Shown here: piece after piece, positions 6,143 through 18,999 of the stretch
Numbering within the stretch: the stretch's first letter is position 1
Layout: the number at the start of each line of letters is the position of its first letter
Virus record (IMG/VR): IMGVR_UViG_3300034152_001126
Coordinates: 1 to 24,969 of that record
Strand: one strand, 5' to 3'
Source of the DNA: a virus
Lineage: Duplodnaviria > Caudoviricetes
DNA length: 24,969 nucleotides
Translations under genes and position numbers: made by a program
Notes under the pieces: generated by a model
What the model was told of the DNA's origin: nothing
The model's input: only the letters and a program-made list of their open reading frames with translations
The model's database searches: none

Positions 6143-7035
6143 TGGCTGTTATTGCAGTAACTGCTACAGAATTAGGACCACAACTTATATCTGGGATACC
6201 ATTTATGGTATCTTTATCAACAAATGTGCCAGCCACAATGTTTTATACATTGGATGGAAGTCAGCCTGGCATGTTGTCTCCAGTATATATTTCTCCAATT
6301 ATAATGCCTACCGAGTCTCCAGTAAGACTTAGAGTGTGGGCTTTAAGTGGTTCAGATCGCGGCGGTTTGGATATAACTTTTCGCTCTGATTCTTCTGATA
6401 CGCCATATTTCAGGAGAATCGATGGATATGGAATCGGCATAGCAGTTGATGCCTACGACGTAATCCCTGTCCTATTAGATGGGTATAAGCCAGATGAAAA
6501 TCTTATGGTTGACATTCCAGCCAGGTATTCTGATTATGAGTTGGAAGACCTAGAGATACAGGATAAAAAATATGATCTTGAGGGCACGGGAACGGTGGTT
6601 ATCACTACGCCAGTCATTGGAGGCCGAGGTTCATCTATTGATCCAACACCAAGTTCTCCTAACAATCAAAATGTATATTTTAATCCCCGATCTATGTATA
6701 TTACCATAGACGGAACCGATGGTTATGAAGATCAGTCGGTTTATATAATTAACAGACCTTACGGTAATACAATGGATATGACCAAGTATTTACAGGGCAA
6801 ATCTATGTATGAGCCGCAACCTTATATTTCAGGGGGTCATGTAAGAACGTTTTACACTATAAAAGATGGATATGGCCTAGCATGTTCCTATTATTTCGAT
6901 CATAACGAAACAAGATGGATAAAAAGCATACAAAGTTTTGATCCTGCTTCTATTCCAGAGGGTGTGGGAGATAGGAGACAGTTTGGGCCACCACTTGTAT
7001 TCAAGTGGATTTACAACAAGAGATCTGCAATATAA
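6142..7035 (+). CDS. Hypothetical protein with N-terminal chitobiase/beta-hexosaminidase C-terminal (Fn3-like) domain
   Basis: ATMFYTLDGSQP...SPVY..PI...VRLRVWA matches the YT.DGS.P Fn3-associated pattern. The remainder is acidic and Gly/Tyr/Pro-rich. Confidence 0.6.
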   Translation: MAVIAVTATELGPQLISGIPFMVSLSTNVPATMFYTLDGSQPGMLSPVYISPIIMPTESPVRLRVWALSGSDRGGLDITFRSDSSDTPYFRRIDGYGIGIAVDAYDVIPVLLDGYKPDENLMVDIPARYSDYELEDLEIQDKKYDLEGTGTVVITTPVIGGRGSSIDPTPSSPNNQNVYFNPRSMYITIDGTDGYEDQSVYIINRPYGNTMDMTKYLQGKSMYEPQPYISGGHVRTFYTIKDGYGLACSYYFDHNETRWIKSIQSFDPASIPEGVGDRRQFGPPLVFKWIYNKRSAI

Positions 7036-7628
7036 TGAAAAAGTGTAATATGTGTTCTGAAATAAAAGATGAAACAGAGTTTCATAAATGTAAAAGAAAT
7101 AAAGATGGATTACAATATCATTGTAGAAAATGTAGCACAAAATATAGAAGAAAGTATGCTAAAAAGAAACCTGAGAAAATTAAAGAATGGAATAGAACAT
7201 ATAGAGAAAATCATTCTGATCAAATAAGAAGATATTATAGAGATAACTCAGAGTATTTTAAGCAATATAGAATAGATCATGCTGAACACTATGAGGAATA
7301 TTATAGAAAAAATGCTGATAGGTTAAAGGAATATCGAAAACAGTATTATAGAGAGAATCCTCATATATGTGCTAACGCCAAGGCAAAAAGAAGGGCCTTG
7401 GTTGGTGATCAATCGATTTCAAAAGAAGATTGGCTTCTCATAATGGACTCTGGAGATTGGAGTTGTTTTTATTGTGGGGTGAAATTGAACGATAGCAACA
7501 GATCTATAGACCACTTTGTGGCTTTGGCGAAAGGTGGTGATCATGCGGTTCATAACCTTGTTTCATGTTGTATTAGTTGCAACTTATCCAAGGGAGATAA
7601 GACATATCGTGAATGGAAAAAATTATGA
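7035..7628 (+). CDS. HNH endonuclease with N-terminal zinc finger (free-standing, homing-type)
   Basis: KKC..C...K...EF.......DG....C..C, then Tyr/Arg-rich helical repeats, then CFYCG...IDH...L.KGG.H...NLV..C..CN.SKG. Start placed at 7035 from the TAATG overlap (track start 7005). Confidence 0.88.
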   Translation: MKKCNMCSEIKDETEFHKCKRNKDGLQYHCRKCSTKYRRKYAKKKPEKIKEWNRTYRENHSDQIRRYYRDNSEYFKQYRIDHAEHYEEYYRKNADRLKEYRKQYYRENPHICANAKAKRRALVGDQSISKEDWLLIMDSGDWSCFYCGVKLNDSNRSIDHFVALAKGGDHAVHNLVSCCISCNLSKGDKTYREWKKL

Positions 7629-12803: not shown

Positions 12804-13129
12804 TGGATATTACCACACCTAAATTAAAAAAATACGGTATTACACGTAGGAGTACGAAAAACTGTCAATGTAGTCAGAACGCATTTGTCTACCTAATTCC
12901 AGTAAAATTGGATGAAAGGGTGGTGAAGTTTATTGAACACATAGGAAAGCCTGCTTTCGATTTTAAAAAAACTTCCATTCTTAAAATAGAAAATCCAACT
13001 CTTATTATATCAGGGATTAGAAGGCTACGAGAAATAAGACTTACATTGAAGAAAAATGTGAAAGGCGTTATAGATATTTTCGAAGACGCAATTATTAAGT
13101 ATATAGAAAGTTTTAAGGAGAAAGAATGA
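12803..13129 (+). CDS. Hypothetical protein
   Basis: 108-aa ORF coupled on both sides (TGATG upstream, ATGA with dnaE). Confidence 0.7.
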   Translation: MDITTPKLKKYGITRRSTKNCQCSQNAFVYLIPVKLDERVVKFIEHIGKPAFDFKKTSILKIENPTLIISGIRRLREIRLTLKKNVKGVIDIFEDAIIKYIESFKEKE

Positions 13130-16100
13130 GGGACTTTGTACATCTACATGCCCACACTAATCTTGGGTCCATGTTAGATGCCCTTCAGAGTGTAGACGAT
13201 CTGTTCGATTTAGTTAACCTAAAAGGGCAAAAAGCATTGGCAATCACGGATCATGGGACTCTGGCCGCGCTCTTTGATGCATACAAAGCATATAAAAGAA
13301 CTGGTGTTAAGTTTATACCAGGCTGCGAGGCTTATTTTGTCCACTCATATGATATTATTGAGCCAAAAAAAGGTGAAAAAGGTAGGAAAAAGACCGAGAA
13401 ACGTAAGCATATGGTGTTGTTAGCTCAGAATGAAACTGGCTATAAAAACCTGCTTAAGATTAATTATCTAGGATTTCATCACTTTGTTGTTAGCATGGGC
13501 AGAGTTTTTCCAAGAATTAGTTGGGAGATTCTCGAAGAATATAATGAGGGAATTATTGCCATGTCTGCCTGTGCTAATGGAATATTGGCAGAACCCATTT
13601 TCCAGGATGATTATAAAAAAGCGGTGGAATATGCTAAACGTTTCGCTGATATTTTCAAAGGAAGGTTTTATTTAGAAATTCAACCACATGCCCTTGAAGA
13701 TGACAGACTTAGCCAGGTAAAGCTCAACAACCAACTAATCAAGATGTCCAAAGAGCTAGATTTGCCTTTGGTAACTGCGGTTGATGCGCATTATCTTACG
13801 AAATCCGATGCGACTGTACATGATGTGCTGATGGCTATTAATGCTAAAAAGCCTGTGGACGATCCAGATCGACATCGCTATGGTATAAATGAGTTTTATG
13901 TGAAAGATGGAGACGAAGTATATGACTTTCTTGCTAAATTTCACGGTGAAGAGGCAGCTGAAGAGGCCGTATCCAACACGGTAAAAATAGCAGATATGAT
14001 AGAGCCACCAGACTATATGGAATCTAAGGGTAACCATTTGCCTGTGTTTGACCCATCTAAAGAGCCAGACTACAAAGAATTTTTAGAATGGCGCGAGAAA
14101 TCGCACACTCCAGAAAATTTACCAATGGATAAAGCCTATATGAGGTTCCATATTATTGATGGCTTTAAAAGGAAGTTTGGACATCTTGGTCCTGCCGAGA
14201 GAAAAGAAAGGTGGGATCGTGTCAAAAATGAACTCAAAATATTGGAAGGCAATAATTTTTCATCATATATGTTGATTACAGCAGATATGATTAAATGGGC
14301 TAAGAAGAACGATATTCTTGTTGGCATTGGACGAGGGTGTTTATCCGGAGACACTATGGTTTTTACCAGCGATGGGTTCAAAAGGTTAGATAAAATAGTA
14401 AAAGGCGATGTTGTCTTAACCCACAAAGGTAGGTTTAGATCTGTTAAAGATACATTTAAATATGATGTTTCAAATGAAGATTTAGTTCAGGTAAGAACGG
14501 ATTACTCGTTTGGTCCAATTACATTAACAAATGATCACGAGGTTTATGGGACTAAAAAGCGCAAAACAAAATCGTATCAGCAATATTTAAATAATAACTG
14601 GAAGCCGCCATTTAAAAGAAGAAAATATTTTGTTAAAAATGATCCATCATTTGTGGCCATTTCTGAACTGAATAAGGATGATTTTATATTTATGCCTTTT
14701 CCTGACAGGCCAGATCATGATATAGAAAGTTTAGATTTGGGAGAGTATTGTGGTCCTAATGATATACTTGATGGTAATAATATTATATCTATGATCCCAC
14801 TAACAAATAATCTCTCTATTGGGGAGATTAGTAAAAAAACGGGTCTATCAAGAAACGCTGTACAAAGGGCTAAAAGAAATAATAAAATTTTAGTGAAGAC
14901 AAGACTTGTTATTTCTGATTATTTAGCCCAATCTGGTGTGTCTTTCGACGATTGGCAAAACAGCACAAACACAGAGAACAGAGAGATTGGCAGATATTTA
15001 GAAATTGATGAAGATTTTTGTTATATGATAGGAAGGTGGATTGGAGATGGCTGGATACATGATAAAAACCAGTCATATAGTATAGGGTTCGCATTTCATA
15101 GAGACGATGTAAGTGGAAAAGAAAAACTATTTAATTATTTTAGTGAGTTGGGGTTTAAATGTACTATTGCTCCACATAAAGAAAAAAAAATAGACCAACT
15201 ATATGTATATAGTTATATTTTAGCTAAACTTTTTAGAGATCTTTTCCCGAGTTATCAAGACACATCAAGTACTAAATCATTCGGTATTTTTTCTGGGTTG
15301 CCGTCTAACAAAACAAAACAAATTATAATGGGAATTAAACATTCAGATGGCCATTATAACATAGAAAGAGACAAGCGTGAAAATATTGACTCTACAAGCA
15401 TTAATCTTATTAATAATATTAGACAGGAACTACTGTATTTAAAAATACCCAGCAGTGTTTCAATAAGAAAAAGCTACAAATATGGAGAGTATGTTTGTAA
15501 AAAATCTTATAAATTGCGATTTAGAGGTATCGAGGGAGAGTTATCAAATAGAATTGATCACCGTATTTTTGAAAATGGATATTATGTTACAATTTTAGAT
15601 AAAAAGCAAATCAAAAAAGACTTTGTATATGATATTCACGTAGATGAGGACAAGTCCTATGTGACACAAAATTATGCTGTACACAATAGTGTCGGCGGAA
15701 GTTTAATTGCTCATCTGTTAGGTATTCACAACGTAGATCCTCTTGAGTATGGATTATTATTTGAGAGATTCCAGAATGCATATAAAACAGATCTCCCAGA
15801 TATAGATACAGATTTCACATCTAACGGCCGAGACAATGTTCAGGAATATGTAAGAGAAAAGTATGGCCGAGATAACTGTGCCCAGGTATCGAATATTAAC
15901 ACCTATACTCCCAAAAATGTGATCCCAGATCTTGTTAAATCTATGAGAAATGTAATGCCAGGTTTAATTCCAGAGGGAGCCTATTATGTAAAAATCGCAG
16001 AGGCTATTAAGGCTGCCATTCCAGATCAAGATCCTGACGGCAATAAGGTAAAGACTCTTGAGCGTGCTATGGAACTTTCTCCTAAATTACGTGATTTTGC

Positions 16101-18999
16101 TGATCGTTGCCCAGAACTAATGGAATGTGCTGATAAAATTGTTGGCATGCCAAAAGAGTATTCTACACACGCAGCTGGGATGGTAGTTTCAGATGTCCCA
16201 ATTTATGAGTTTGCTCCGCTACGTATTGATAAAAACAGGGAAATAGCAGTACAGTATGAGAAGAATCGCTGTGAGAGCGAGGGTTTGGTTAAGATGGATT
16301 TCTTGGCCATATCAACGTTGGATGTCATTGACGAGACATTTAAAAACATTAGAAGTCTTGGTATAGAAAATGCACCCAGACAAATGGAAGATATTCCACT
16401 GGATGACCCTGCCACATATGAGATGATTCAGCGCGGTCAAACCAAGTGTGTTTTCCAACTCGGCAAGTCAGGCATTATGGCGGCCCTATGTAAAAGGATT
16501 AAGCCAAAAAATATTTTGGATATTGCCATGGTAAATGCTCTTGGCAGGCCTGCAGCAAAAGGTAAGCCAGGAGAAAAAGGCACCAGAGAAGAGTATATAG
16601 ATCGCAGAACAGGCAAGGATGAGGTTACCTATCCTCACATATCTTTAGAAAAGCCTCTTGGCGAGACGTATGGTTTAGCCATCACAGAAGAGCAACTTAT
16701 GGGTGTAGCTGGCCATGTAGCTGGATGGGACCTAAACAAAGCAGATAAGCTCAGAAAGTTTACCAAGATTAAGGGTAAGGATCCAGATTTTGCTCTAAAA
16801 CTAGAGGCGGAGTTTATTGAGGGGATGATGAACACCCATGGTGTAGATTATGAGTTGGCTAAGGGAGTTTGGGATAAGTATGTAGCTGGCTTCGGGGGGT
16901 ACGGCTTCAATAAAACTATGCATAAAGATACATTAGTTTATACCACATCAGGCACAAAGAAAATGTCAGAGTGTAAGGTGGGAGATAAACTGTATAGTTT
17001 AGATGACGGGAAAGTTGTTGTATCAAATATTACAAACATATATGATCATGGTATAGTCCCTTTATGGAAATTAACATTCAACGATGGTTCTGTTGAAAGG
17101 TGCACATTAGATCATAAGTGGATTGTAAATGGGGAAAGGATAACTACTAGGAGGATATTAGAAGAAAATGCCGAAATCGATTCCATCAGTGTGTCCGGGT
17201 TGCCATCAGGAATTTCCCTCAAAAGCGAAGTTAAATGCTCACAAAAAAATATGTGTAGAGTATTGTTCTCAAGTAAAAACGGGGATAAATGCGAAAAGAG
17301 TAAGAAAGTTTTATTGTGGAGAGGAAAAGGTTTGTACAAAAGTGGAATGGTCAGAACACTTCCAAAAATGTCAAATATGTCAGAAAGTAAGAAAAGAGGT
17401 TCGTCAACAGACCATGTCGAAGGTAAACAGGTCGGACACAATGAGAAAAAAAGCCTCAGTAACTGCGAAGAAAACATCCTCAAGAATAGATATACAACTA
17501 AAGAGAGCAGAAGTTTTGAGGAAATGGAGACAAAACAATCCAGAGGAGTTTGCAAAAATATTGGCAAAGGCGCACAGTTCTCCAAAGAGATCAAAGATGG
17601 AAATGGAATTAGAGCCGCATTTGCAGAAAATAGGGTTCAAAAGAAACGGGACGATTTTGTGTGGCTCAAAACAGAAACAAGTAGATTTTGTCAACAAAGA
17701 GATAAGGTGTGTGATAGAGATAGATGGTCCTTGGCATTTCCTCCCAATCAAGGGAGAGGATCACTTGAAAACAGTACAGAGCAGAGATTGTATATTAGAG
17801 ACGGAGATCAGCAAGAGGGAATGGAAGTTATTGAGGATCGCCATGGATCAGTTCCCAAAATCTGGCAAACCATCAGAAAAACTCCTGGATATAATTATAA
17901 AAATTATACAAGAGAGGCCAAGCAAAATATACTATCTAGGAAAGTTATACAATTCAGTTTCGAGGGATTTGATAGGGGACTTGATATAGAAGTTGATAAT
18001 GAATCTCATAATTTTCTTCTTGCATCTGGTATATTTACTTCAAACTCGCATGCAGTATTCTATTCAATTAATGGATATATCACAGCTTATCTAAAATGTC
18101 ACTATCCTGCAGCTTTTCTTGCAGCCTATCTTAAGGTTAAAACTTCAAAGGGCGGCATTAACAAAGATGATGAGATTAATGGAGCGAAGGGTGAGTGCCG
18201 TAGGTTGGGAATTAGAATTATTCCTCCCGATATTAACAAAAGCAAAGCTGGATACGAGGTCTTGGATGATCAAACTGTCGTAATGGGCTTAGCGGCTATT
18301 AAGGGAATGGGAGCAAAGGCTCTAGATGAAGTTATAAGTAAACAACCATTCTCATCGTTTGTTAATTTTCTCCACAAAGTAGACGGTAGAATTATTAATA
18401 AAAGTAAAATCGAAGCTTTAGCTAAGGCTGGGTGTTTCGATTCTTTCAAAGTAAACAGAAAAGATGTTCATGATGAGGGTAAAAAGATACGTGATAAGAT
18501 GAACGCCTTCCTCAGAAAGAAGATCAAAGATGGTTATGATGCTGAAATGGCTATCGAAGATTTTCCTCTTAAATTCTCTGGAAATGAGTGGGGCCAACAG
18601 GAAAAACTTAGGTATGAGCAAGAGGTATTGGGCGAATTAGTATCTGGAAATATCCACGACCTTTTTCCCAGATTCTTTACCAATAATGGAGTTACTTTAA
18701 TCTCCAAGCTTCGAGTGCTACCAAATCGTCATAGAATTGTGGTAGAAGTTATTGTCAAGAGCTTTTTGCGTGAGTTTAAGATAAAAAATGGCAAATACGC
18801 TGGTCAGAAGATGGCCAAATACCTAGTGGAAGATGTCATGGGCACGGAGGTTGAGCTTACAGTGTGGCCAACTGAGTATAAAACTGCCAAAGATTTAATG
18901 ACTATTGGCAGGCCGGTTGGGGCCATCTGTGAGGTAAGTGACTTTAACGGTGCGAAAACATTAATGTTAAAAGAACTTCAAAAAGTTTATGGAAATTGA
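13126..18999 (+). CDS. dnaE: DNA polymerase III alpha subunit precursor with two inteins (1957 aa; 1130 aa after splicing)
   Basis: PHP motifs HLHAH, AITDHG, GCEAY and DAHY. GRG|S, LLFERF, catalytic PDIDTDF, STHAAG, KMDFL, GYGFNK|SHA, PPDINKS, HhH GLAAIKGMG and C-terminal OB region. Confidence 0.97.
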   Translation: MRDFVHLHAHTNLGSMLDALQSVDDLFDLVNLKGQKALAITDHGTLAALFDAYKAYKRTGVKFIPGCEAYFVHSYDIIEPKKGEKGRKKTEKRKHMVLLAQNETGYKNLLKINYLGFHHFVVSMGRVFPRISWEILEEYNEGIIAMSACANGILAEPIFQDDYKKAVEYAKRFADIFKGRFYLEIQPHALEDDRLSQVKLNNQLIKMSKELDLPLVTAVDAHYLTKSDATVHDVLMAINAKKPVDDPDRHRYGINEFYVKDGDEVYDFLAKFHGEEAAEEAVSNTVKIADMIEPPDYMESKGNHLPVFDPSKEPDYKEFLEWREKSHTPENLPMDKAYMRFHIIDGFKRKFGHLGPAERKERWDRVKNELKILEGNNFSSYMLITADMIKWAKKNDILVGIGRGCLSGDTMVFTSDGFKRLDKIVKGDVVLTHKGRFRSVKDTFKYDVSNEDLVQVRTDYSFGPITLTNDHEVYGTKKRKTKSYQQYLNNNWKPPFKRRKYFVKNDPSFVAISELNKDDFIFMPFPDRPDHDIESLDLGEYCGPNDILDGNNIISMIPLTNNLSIGEISKKTGLSRNAVQRAKRNNKILVKTRLVISDYLAQSGVSFDDWQNSTNTENREIGRYLEIDEDFCYMIGRWIGDGWIHDKNQSYSIGFAFHRDDVSGKEKLFNYFSELGFKCTIAPHKEKKIDQLYVYSYILAKLFRDLFPSYQDTSSTKSFGIFSGLPSNKTKQIIMGIKHSDGHYNIERDKRENIDSTSINLINNIRQELLYLKIPSSVSIRKSYKYGEYVCKKSYKLRFRGIEGELSNRIDHRIFENGYYVTILDKKQIKKDFVYDIHVDEDKSYVTQNYAVHNSVGGSLIAHLLGIHNVDPLEYGLLFERFQNAYKTDLPDIDTDFTSNGRDNVQEYVREKYGRDNCAQVSNINTYTPKNVIPDLVKSMRNVMPGLIPEGAYYVKIAEAIKAAIPDQDPDGNKVKTLERAMELSPKLRDFADRCPELMECADKIVGMPKEYSTHAAGMVVSDVPIYEFAPLRIDKNREIAVQYEKNRCESEGLVKMDFLAISTLDVIDETFKNIRSLGIENAPRQMEDIPLDDPATYEMIQRGQTKCVFQLGKSGIMAALCKRIKPKNILDIAMVNALGRPAAKGKPGEKGTREEYIDRRTGKDEVTYPHISLEKPLGETYGLAITEEQLMGVAGHVAGWDLNKADKLRKFTKIKGKDPDFALKLEAEFIEGMMNTHGVDYELAKGVWDKYVAGFGGYGFNKTMHKDTLVYTTSGTKKMSECKVGDKLYSLDDGKVVVSNITNIYDHGIVPLWKLTFNDGSVERCTLDHKWIVNGERITTRRILEENAEIDSISVSGLPSGISLKSEVKCSQKNMCRVLFSSKNGDKCEKSKKVLLWRGKGLYKSGMVRTLPKMSNMSESKKRGSSTDHVEGKQVGHNEKKSLSNCEENILKNRYTTKESRSFEEMETKQSRGVCKNIGKGAQFSKEIKDGNGIRAAFAENRVQKKRDDFVWLKTETSRFCQQRDKVCDRDRWSLAFPPNQGRGSLENSTEQRLYIRDGDQQEGMEVIEDRHGSVPKIWQTIRKTPGYNYKNYTREAKQNILSRKVIQFSFEGFDRGLDIEVDNESHNFLLASGIFTSNSHAVFYSINGYITAYLKCHYPAAFLAAYLKVKTSKGGINKDDEINGAKGECRRLGIRIIPPDINKSKAGYEVLDDQTVVMGLAAIKGMGAKALDEVISKQPFSSFVNFLHKVDGRIINKSKIEALAKAGCFDSFKVNRKDVHDEGKKIRDKMNAFLRKKIKDGYDAEMAIEDFPLKFSGNEWGQQEKLRYEQEVLGELVSGNIHDLFPRFFTNNGVTLISKLRVLPNRHRIVVEVIVKSFLREFKIKNGKYAGQKMAKYLVEDVMGTEVELTVWPTEYKTAKDLMTIGRPVGAICEVSDFNGAKTLMLKELQKVYGN
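14338..15687 (+). mobile_element. DnaE intein 1 (450 aa) with in-frame LAGLIDADG endonuclease
   Basis: Inserted in GRG|S. Begins CLSGDT, block B LTNDHEV, LAGLIDADG motifs YMIGRWIGDG and IMGIKHSDG, block F VYDIHV, ends VHN with Ser+1. Confidence 0.95.
17149..17154 (+). promoter_or_regulatory. Shine-Dalgarno for the nested endonuclease gene
   Basis: AGGAGG (Arg-Arg codons of the intein frame) 13 nt before ATG 17168. The spacing is on the long side. Confidence 0.55.
17168..17989 (+). CDS. Zinc-finger + DUF559/Vsr-like (EDxHD-type) endonuclease nested in the +1 frame of DnaE intein 2
   Basis: 273 aa: CPGC-x12-H...C finger, basic helical linker, then SKME..L...L...GF, VDFV, VIEIDGPWH, RD..L and WKLLRI, the Vsr/DUF559 nuclease pattern. 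Confidence 0.85.
   Translation: MPKSIPSVCPGCHQEFPSKAKLNAHKKICVEYCSQVKTGINAKRVRKFYCGEEKVCTKVEWSEHFQKCQICQKVRKEVRQQTMSKVNRSDTMRKKASVTAKKTSSRIDIQLKRAEVLRKWRQNNPEEFAKILAKAHSSPKRSKMEMELEPHLQKIGFKRNGTILCGSKQKQVDFVNKEIRCVIEIDGPWHFLPIKGEDHLKTVQSRDCILETEISKREWKLLRIAMDQFPKSGKPSEKLLDIIIKIIQERPSKIYYLGKLYNSVSRDLIGDLI

Follow-up and report, generated by a model that had tools for sequence, protein, structure and literature searches.

A DnaE intein of a Caudoviricetes phage with a predicted Vsr-like nuclease overprinted in the +1 frame, and its relation to split inteins

The described systems closest to the locus analyzed here combine homing endonucleases with inteins, introns or host genes in various ways. 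A cyanobacterial DnaX intein whose homing endonuclease is encoded out of frame was reported by Phillips, DeSimone and Gogarten (bioRxiv 10.64898/2026.09.14.751524), whose available text credits Gorbalenya 1998. Non-canonical inteins of actinobacteriophages were described by Gosselin, Arsenault and Gogarten (bioRxiv 10.1101/2025.01.02.630785); the accessible account includes antisense LAGLIDADG nucleases and proposes that these systems originated by invasion of an intein by a free-standing nuclease. Fractured genes, as outlined by Dassa et al. 2009 (PMC2677866), contain a split intein together with a free-standing Vsr-like endonuclease. I-Bth0305I is described as an EDxHD homing endonuclease located in a group I intron and possessing DNA-binding parts of the NUMOD and helix-turn-helix (HTH) types (Taylor et al. 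2011, PMC3239194), and the ShiLan domain as an out-of-frame homing nuclease in a host gene that is kept stop-free (Arsenault et al. 2025, PMC11855218). In this work, we analyzed a stretch of 24,969 nucleotides of a Caudoviricetes virus (positions 1 to 24,969 of the IMG/VR record IMGVR_UViG_3300034152_001126; hereafter the window), in which the second intein of the phage gene dnaE, for the alpha subunit of DNA polymerase III (Pol III), carries a predicted nuclease gene in its +1 frame.

The dnaE gene (13126..18999, plus strand) encodes a 1957-aa precursor with two inteins and with PHP, DNA_pol3_alpha, finger and HHH_6 domains identified by Pfam, and its open reading frame (ORF) is free of stop codons throughout. 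Intein 2 (16915..18045, plus strand; 377 aa), delimited by sequence and family profile, is inserted at FNK|SHA, which corresponds to residue 758|759 of E. coli DnaE; its boundaries read FNK|TMHK...FTSN|SHA, that is, Thr1...Asn|Ser. The overprinted +1 ORF (17168..17989, plus strand) encodes 273 aa followed by TAG, with a zinc-finger-like N-terminus, a helical middle and a Vsr/EDxHD-like nuclease domain, as assigned from AlphaFold, Foldseek and the ratio of nonsynonymous to synonymous differences (pN/pS). Across 16915-18045, the intein frame contains no stop codons, the +1 frame nine, all outside 17162-17986, and the +2 frame 41. We consider it probable that this locus is a two-frame mobile intein, in which an intact intein with a stop-free linker is combined with a likely self-translated +1 Vsr/EDxHD-like nuclease that likely homes into empty dnaE alleles. 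An initial annotation of this DNA had claimed dual coding at these coordinates, with an AGGAGG and an in-frame TAG ahead of the nuclease and the nuclease stop inside intein block F, and all of this was confirmed when the frames were re-read.

For comparative analysis, IMG/VR and JGI metagenomes were scanned and the loci obtained were de-duplicated and classified, with the window phage counted once; the scans were limited in extent. Twenty-five distinct contiguous loci with a full nuclease in the +1 frame (dual loci; window included; 35-59% GC) were identified, 21 of them at the same DnaE site and four in proteins of two further kinds that belong to no Pfam family (L008, L061, L055 and L059, the last two sigma-like by eye). 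Dual loci occur in phages and in bacterial chromosomes; the cellular host L040 has a full-length DnaE close to that of E. coli (E 1.6e-104), and the neighbours of cellular-host loci include rnhB, ispF, pqiA and phnA fragments. Another 22 loci are split, their two intein halves being separated by a nuclease of this family; the N-half lies at the same DnaE site in 21 of these and is missing from the DNA examined for L007. Two loci cut off by contig edges (L098 and L108) were left unclassified. At the protein level, 139 clusters were obtained in a profile search at E<1e-30. Contrary to what had been supposed, the nuclease is not missed by gene callers in every case: ten relatives are present in a collection of called proteins (one hypothetical, in a Desulfococcaceae metagenome-assembled genome).

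The assignment of the +1 product as a nuclease rests on its fold, because its Pfam matches are only sub-threshold (DUF559, E 0.008; zf-C2H2, E 0.019). The AlphaFold model has a mean predicted local distance difference test score (pLDDT) of 85, and its top two Foldseek matches are structures of E. coli Vsr (1cw0, E 2.3e-5, probability 1.0; 1vsr, E 3.5e-4); a PHROG match was also obtained (E 2.5e-6). For the zinc-finger and DUF559/Vsr-type nuclease that had been annotated, a Vsr fold is present, whereas the zinc-finger and DUF559 families stay below cutoff. The predicted catalytic domain (17588..17953, plus strand), outlined from conservation in 13 sequences, contains E145, D173, E184, D186, H190 and D207; all are invariant except E145, which is nearly so, and their catalytic roles are mapped by spacing rather than by superposition. 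The spacing of 17 between D173 and H190 is the same as that between D196 and H213 of I-Bth0305I. The N-terminus holds a putative zinc finger, C-x2-C-x12-H-x3-C (residues 9-29; 17192..17254, plus strand), to which the weak zf-C2H2 match pertains, and a second C/H/C/C set at residues 50-71 with C50, H64, C68 and C71 conserved; the zinc-finger reading, drawn from the Cys/His pattern, is weakly supported. No Pfam match to NUMOD was found in the +1 protein, which has zinc-finger-like motifs in its place.

In the intein frame, two splicing regions enclose a passenger. The N-terminal region (16915..17166, plus strand) contains Thr1, His45 within a D-H-G motif, and Thr64 and His67 of block B; the C-terminal region (17944..18048, plus strand) contains Asp357 of block F, whose codons D-I-E are overlapped by the nuclease stop, a penultimate Ser, Asn377 and Ser+1. 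The linker between them (17167..17940, plus strand; about 260 aa) is stop-free, rich in K, S, E, R and G, and contains no recognizable domain. As had been anticipated, the middle of the intein frame has no Pfam match, and the sub-threshold DUF559 match is confined to the +1 frame. A profile of 15 family members matches the structures of cyanobacterial DnaE inteins (E 2e-19) in two stretches, at the N and C ends only; the Pfam Intein_splicing match to intein 2 itself is below cutoff. The 15 aligned family members all have the block B His, the block F Asp, the Asn and the Ser+1; at residue 1, the 25 dual loci have Thr (12 loci), Ser (10) or Cys (three). The class 1 residue set is present as Thr1, T64 (B:7), H67 (B:10), D357 (F:4), N377 and Ser+1 according to PMC4031507, the text of which gives Cys1 or Ser1 for residue 1 and the Fig. 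3 legend of which also allows Thr. Some 22 residues ahead of the block B His, another His is found in 40 of 40 Ser/Thr-start but only 4 of 16 Cys-start inteins examined (two unparsed). This D-H-G-type residue recalls, as a candidate, the motif NX His, which is described as typical of cysteine-less inteins and as lying upstream of block B near residue 1, with the preceding Arg/Lys reported as invariant (PMC10189870). Together, the residues suggest that intein 2 may splice by the class 1 oxyester route. Class 3 inteins combine Trp B:12, Cys F:4 and Thr G:5 with a residue 1 that is not a nucleophile; intein 2, with Asp at F:4 and Thr at residue 1, is not one of them.

The putative translation signals of the nuclease lie within intein codons. 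The AGGAGG (17149..17154, plus strand), a Shine-Dalgarno (SD)-like site 13 nt before ATG 17168, is formed by two Arg codons of the intein frame and may serve as a ribosome-binding site (RBS), and the in-frame TAG (17159..17161, plus strand) closes the +1 frame just upstream of the start. The surrounding region 17110-17200 is unstructured, with 199 of 200 shuffles folding at least as well, and a hairpin of the type described by Dassa et al. was not found upstream of the nuclease start there. Across the dual loci, 23 of 25 have a start codon accompanied by an SD-like match of at least four bases, under a lenient test that 54 of 332 internal starts also pass; for at least five bases the numbers are 12 of 25 versus 12 of 332, with about three loci expected from 87 candidate starts. 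In eight close relatives the SD-like site is located in intein W-E codons upstream of block B, and the Glu codon is GAG in all eight (GAG fraction in exteins 0.20-0.65). The window lacks this W-E codon site, has +1 stops through block B and carries the AGGAGG of its R-R codons ahead of a later ATG. The nuclease start seems to have moved, and with a moved start independent initiation under selection fits better than a conserved frameshift.

The two frames are under different kinds of selection. In the overlap regions of the 25 dual loci there are no intein-frame stops, versus about 315 expected from within-gene synonymous shuffles; for the window, 10 were expected, and none of 2000 shuffles reached zero. 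T at position 3 of a nuclease codon creates an intein-frame stop when the next codon begins with AA, AG or GA, and in the dual loci T is found at 0 of 1340 such positions, versus 1324 of 3430 elsewhere. The stop counts are bimodal, with zero in contiguous loci and 18-56 in split loci, and seven split or free controls have 22-60 stops, in line with their own shuffles. Since third positions are near saturation (identity 0.31-0.46) and the stop counts are bimodal, stop avoidance is ongoing. The initial annotation had estimated a probability of about 2e-6 for a second frame staying open, a calculation made for the wrong frame: the +1 frame is a real gene, and the improbable part is the open intein frame. 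Homologues with intein-frame stops, which it had held would speak against dual coding, do exist, but only as split inteins; no broken contiguous ones were found. The per-frame comparison of selection, proposed along with the dual-coding claim, revealed purifying selection in the nuclease frame only: in each of the 12 pairs compared, uncorrected pN/pS lay at 0.34-0.46 there and at 1.2-1.9 in the intein frame. Of the two products, the nuclease is the conserved one, and the intein-frame middle is a passenger. Four decayed contiguous loci have the same polarity, with a nonsense codon in the nuclease and an intact intein frame in L038 and deletions preserving the intein frame in L004, L041 and L046; decay strikes the nuclease and spares the intein frame.

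The distribution of the element is patchy. The six closest phage DnaEs (66-85% identical) are all empty at the intein 2 site and read FN[KL]|SHAV. Hosts of the window's element group are spread over several extein clades, gammaproteobacterial-type dnaE among them, and monophyly of its 13 hosts was rejected by the approximately unbiased (AU) test (p-AU 4e-60); the nucleases of the window and L002 are sisters (support 98/93) and their hosts are not (p 0.006). When phage and chromosomal hosts are compared, the intein shows greater similarity than its flanks, as in L019 and L043 (extein 40%, Hint 66%). Empty relatives combined with conflict between host and element trees form the pattern expected of homing, in which cleavage itself would be the presumed step. 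Two empty alleles, L111 and L117, have FNL|SH in place of FNK|SH and could be target variants escaping the nuclease. The same DnaE site also carries other, Cys1 inteins (L027, L032, L033, L035 and L047-L049), some of whose middles look HNH-like or LAGLIDADG-like, in frame, by eye; judged in that way, the site is a hotspot common to unrelated nucleases.

The mechanism had been proposed in outline as a separate Vsr/EDxHD-type nuclease in +1 with the intein frame kept open as a linker, and it is supported as far as the fold, stop avoidance, pN/pS, empty alleles and tree conflict reach. The DnaE frame is open over 377 intein codons, with both splicing halves conserved. The precursor would splice in cis by the class 1 oxyester route, using Thr1, block B Thr/His, Asp F:4, Asn, Ser+1 and the candidate NX-like His, and the junk linker of about 260 aa would be discarded. 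Ribosomes would initiate at ATG 17168 behind AGGAGG and produce the 273-aa nuclease, probably at a low level. The nuclease may then cut an empty allele around FNK|SHA, and repair would copy the intein in. Selection preserves the amino acids of the nuclease and in the intein frame forbids stops only.

Several observations weigh against this interpretation. Thr1 is an unusual, rare option for residue 1, and the candidate NX His is preceded by Asp in intein 2 and by Asp, Asn or Tyr across the family, never by the Arg/Lys. The penultimate His is replaced by Ser, and SN is found in 22 of the 25 dual loci. A penultimate His is common, but not universal, in class 1 inteins. Splicing is described as possible in inteins without it (PMC7664689). 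The 13-nt spacing between AGGAGG and ATG is long; L021 and L059 fail even the lenient start test, and 13 of 25 loci fail the strict one. Pfam and PDB sequence searches gave no significant nuclease match for the +1 protein, and I-Bth0305I (3r3p) is a weak Foldseek match to its model (E 0.26). The stop counts are not independent trials, since absence of stops defines a dual locus and these loci are related; synonymous sites are saturated, and therefore the pN/pS values are uncorrected and the spread may be old.

Some of these points also feed alternative explanations. It is improbable that the nuclease is produced by a programmed +1 ribosomal frameshift and fused to the DnaE N-extein and the N-half of the intein. 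The long SD spacing in the window, the openness of the +1 frame back through block B in 10 of the 25 dual loci, and a single database protein, P0114, in which a DnaE N-extein, intein-N and a nuclease of the same family are fused in frame, agree with such a product; however, P0114 stands alone, a shift in the window would have only about 10 codons available between the TAG at 17159 and the first Cys, no obvious slippery site is visible by eye, and a +1 stop follows block B in 15 of 25 loci, several of which (L051, L052, L102) then have a first ATG with AGGAG at 5-6 nt. About equally improbable is a nuclease that is expressed but cuts elsewhere, in a neighbouring gene or in the DNA of a competing phage, or that is inactive in this phage. 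At least three different host proteins, unlike in their flanks, have inteins with this nuclease family, and the window element has a long branch, as this explanation would have it, yet the predicted catalytic residues are all intact, the pairs that include the window show purifying selection, and an occurrence at one site that is patchy and at odds with the host tree fits self-homing.

Less probable still is that the Thr1 intein fails to splice, leaving the polymerase inactive or functional as cleaved fragments, with some other cause for the open frame. Thr1, the missing penultimate His and the long junk linker favour it; stop avoidance at saturated synonymous sites in 25 loci including full-length chromosomal dnaE, the invariance of the block B His, block F Asp, C-terminal Asn and Ser+1, and the D-H-G His that tracks Ser/Thr starts in every case speak against it. 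Least probable, and largely refuted, are compensating assembly indels hiding an in-frame nuclease and an RNA intron, both of which had been named as ways in which the annotation could fail. Compensating indels are unlikely because L001, an independent assembly of the same phage, differs by five single-nucleotide polymorphisms in 6819 nt without any indel and has the same frames, and the +1 offset is common to 24 other loci. For group I and II introns, an Rfam search of the window gave no match at gathering score, and the insert is bordered on both sides, in frame, by motifs of protein splicing.

The window locus can further be compared with its split relatives. In a nuclease tree rooted with four distant free-standing nucleases, from which the partial nucleases L004, L038 and L077 were omitted, 24 dual loci form a clade with the split locus L006 (89/89), and 21 split loci form another with the dual locus L093, giving at least three state changes on the starred branches. 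Forcing all dual loci together was rejected (p-AU 0.008), whereas relocation of a single locus, L093 (p 0.39) or L006 (p 0.16), was not; therefore at least one extra switch is supported, in either direction. The host of L006 is sister to the dual L054/L057 (100). Because the split inteins that form the sister group of the dual family carry the same nuclease and occupy the same site, dual and fractured forms likely interconvert. Tentatively, with belief and doubt close to balance, we propose that this is one DnaE intein lineage that can convert, at the same site, between a split trans-splicing state and a contiguous state with the same Vsr-like nuclease overprinted in +1. Switches would go both ways (L006 in the dual clade, L093 in the split clade), the nuclease RBS and start would be re-made in intein codons after loss, and its members would include natural Thr1 inteins. 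If true, such a lineage would provide the missing route between contiguous and split inteins. P0114 may represent a third state, or may be an indel artefact. As to how a gene with about 30 intein-frame stops could first have lost them all, one possibility is descent from a GC-rich ancestor (3.8 stops are expected in L040). Among split loci, many of L069, L075, L076 and L085-L099 start with Ser and have Ser+1, and are candidate cysteine-independent split inteins; L023/L024 and L025 are split DnaE inteins at the same site whose halves are adjacent, with no nuclease between them.

The remainder of the window, which is a virus record, contains phage replication genes for SbcCD-like, sigma-like, ssb, RuvC-like and UvsX-like proteins. 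In intein 1 of the same DnaE (14338-15687; 450 aa; Cys1...His-Asn|Ser), two LAGLIDADG-like motifs can be recognized in frame by eye, although a Pfam search of it gave no LAGLIDADG match, and its site is empty in three to four close relatives. A free-standing gene of endonuclease VII/HNH type (7005-7628; phrog_1035, E 3.5e-33) is located between an Fn3-like gene and an exonuclease gene. An FtsK/SpoIIIE-like protein is encoded at 159-1283; its N-terminus weakly matches terminase families known for inteins and may contain a mini-intein.

The family of 25 dual-coding and 22 split loci, obtained from limited scans, is large and divergent for a layout known from few cases, and it makes the origin of split inteins and the entry of free-standing nucleases into inteins testable. 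It shows that about 260 codons can remain fully overprinted for a long time, even at 35% GC, at which split or free relatives have 18-56 stops in the frame concerned, and is a warning that all frames of long "endonuclease-less" inteins should be read. Natural Thr1/Ser+1 inteins and their cysteine-independent split relatives are candidate tools for protein ligation, and the nucleases are candidate new site-specific enzymes directed at a conserved dnaE motif.

The initial annotation had presented the architecture as different from those established, but precedents are published: the architecture is not new, because same-strand out-of-frame endonucleases in contiguous inteins have already been reported (10.64898/2026.09.14.751524; 10.1101/2025.01.02.630785). 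Our literature search found no sense-strand +1 Vsr-like DnaE family sister to same-site split inteins, with at least one switch between the two states and with Thr1 in about half of its members, although supplements of related papers may bear on this point. The window locus has the features of an out-of-frame-endonuclease intein, namely a contiguous intein frame, a nuclease in another frame and selection on the nuclease frame. As far as the available text of 10.64898/2026.09.14.751524 describes it, the DnaX intein resembles intein 2 in being contiguous, in residing in a Pol III subunit and in encoding its endonuclease in an overlapping ORF preceded by a putative Shine-Dalgarno sequence of its own, as well as in its foldless intein-frame middle, its dN/dS (low for the nuclease reading, high for that of the intein) and its sporadic distribution. 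It differs in that its nuclease is a LAGLIDADG enzyme in a '+2ORF', whereas here a Vsr/EDxHD-like nuclease is shifted by +1 in DnaE, and no split sister group is described in that text, in contrast to the family reported here. The actinobacteriophage inteins of Gosselin et al., in their accessible description, are likewise full inteins with the endonuclease in another frame, Vsr-like/EDxHD types included; however, their Vsr-like nucleases are antisense, and the same-strand case is endonuclease VII-like in frame 3. The hosts given there are actinophage DNA polymerase, minor capsid, terminase and thymidylate synthase genes, and the supplements may list more.

Among the other systems, as presented in the portions of the sources available, I-Bth0305I and E. 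coli Vsr share with the +1 protein the Vsr fold, seen here in a model, and the Asp-His spacing of 17. Unlike I-Bth0305I, to which it has no significant sequence match, the +1 protein possesses zinc-finger-like motifs and a long helical segment. The ShiLan system involves an HNH nuclease and a methylase host, with no splicing domain described. The fractured genes of PMC2677866 include three DnaE loci with a Vsr-like nuclease gene between the intein halves and with the 3' end of the nuclease overlapping the C-part of the intein, a layout that matches the 22 split relatives found here. The model proposed there, as available, includes an in-frame fusion and not a contiguous overprinted state; the host gene in those systems is broken and splices in trans, whereas the dnaE gene of the window is contiguous.

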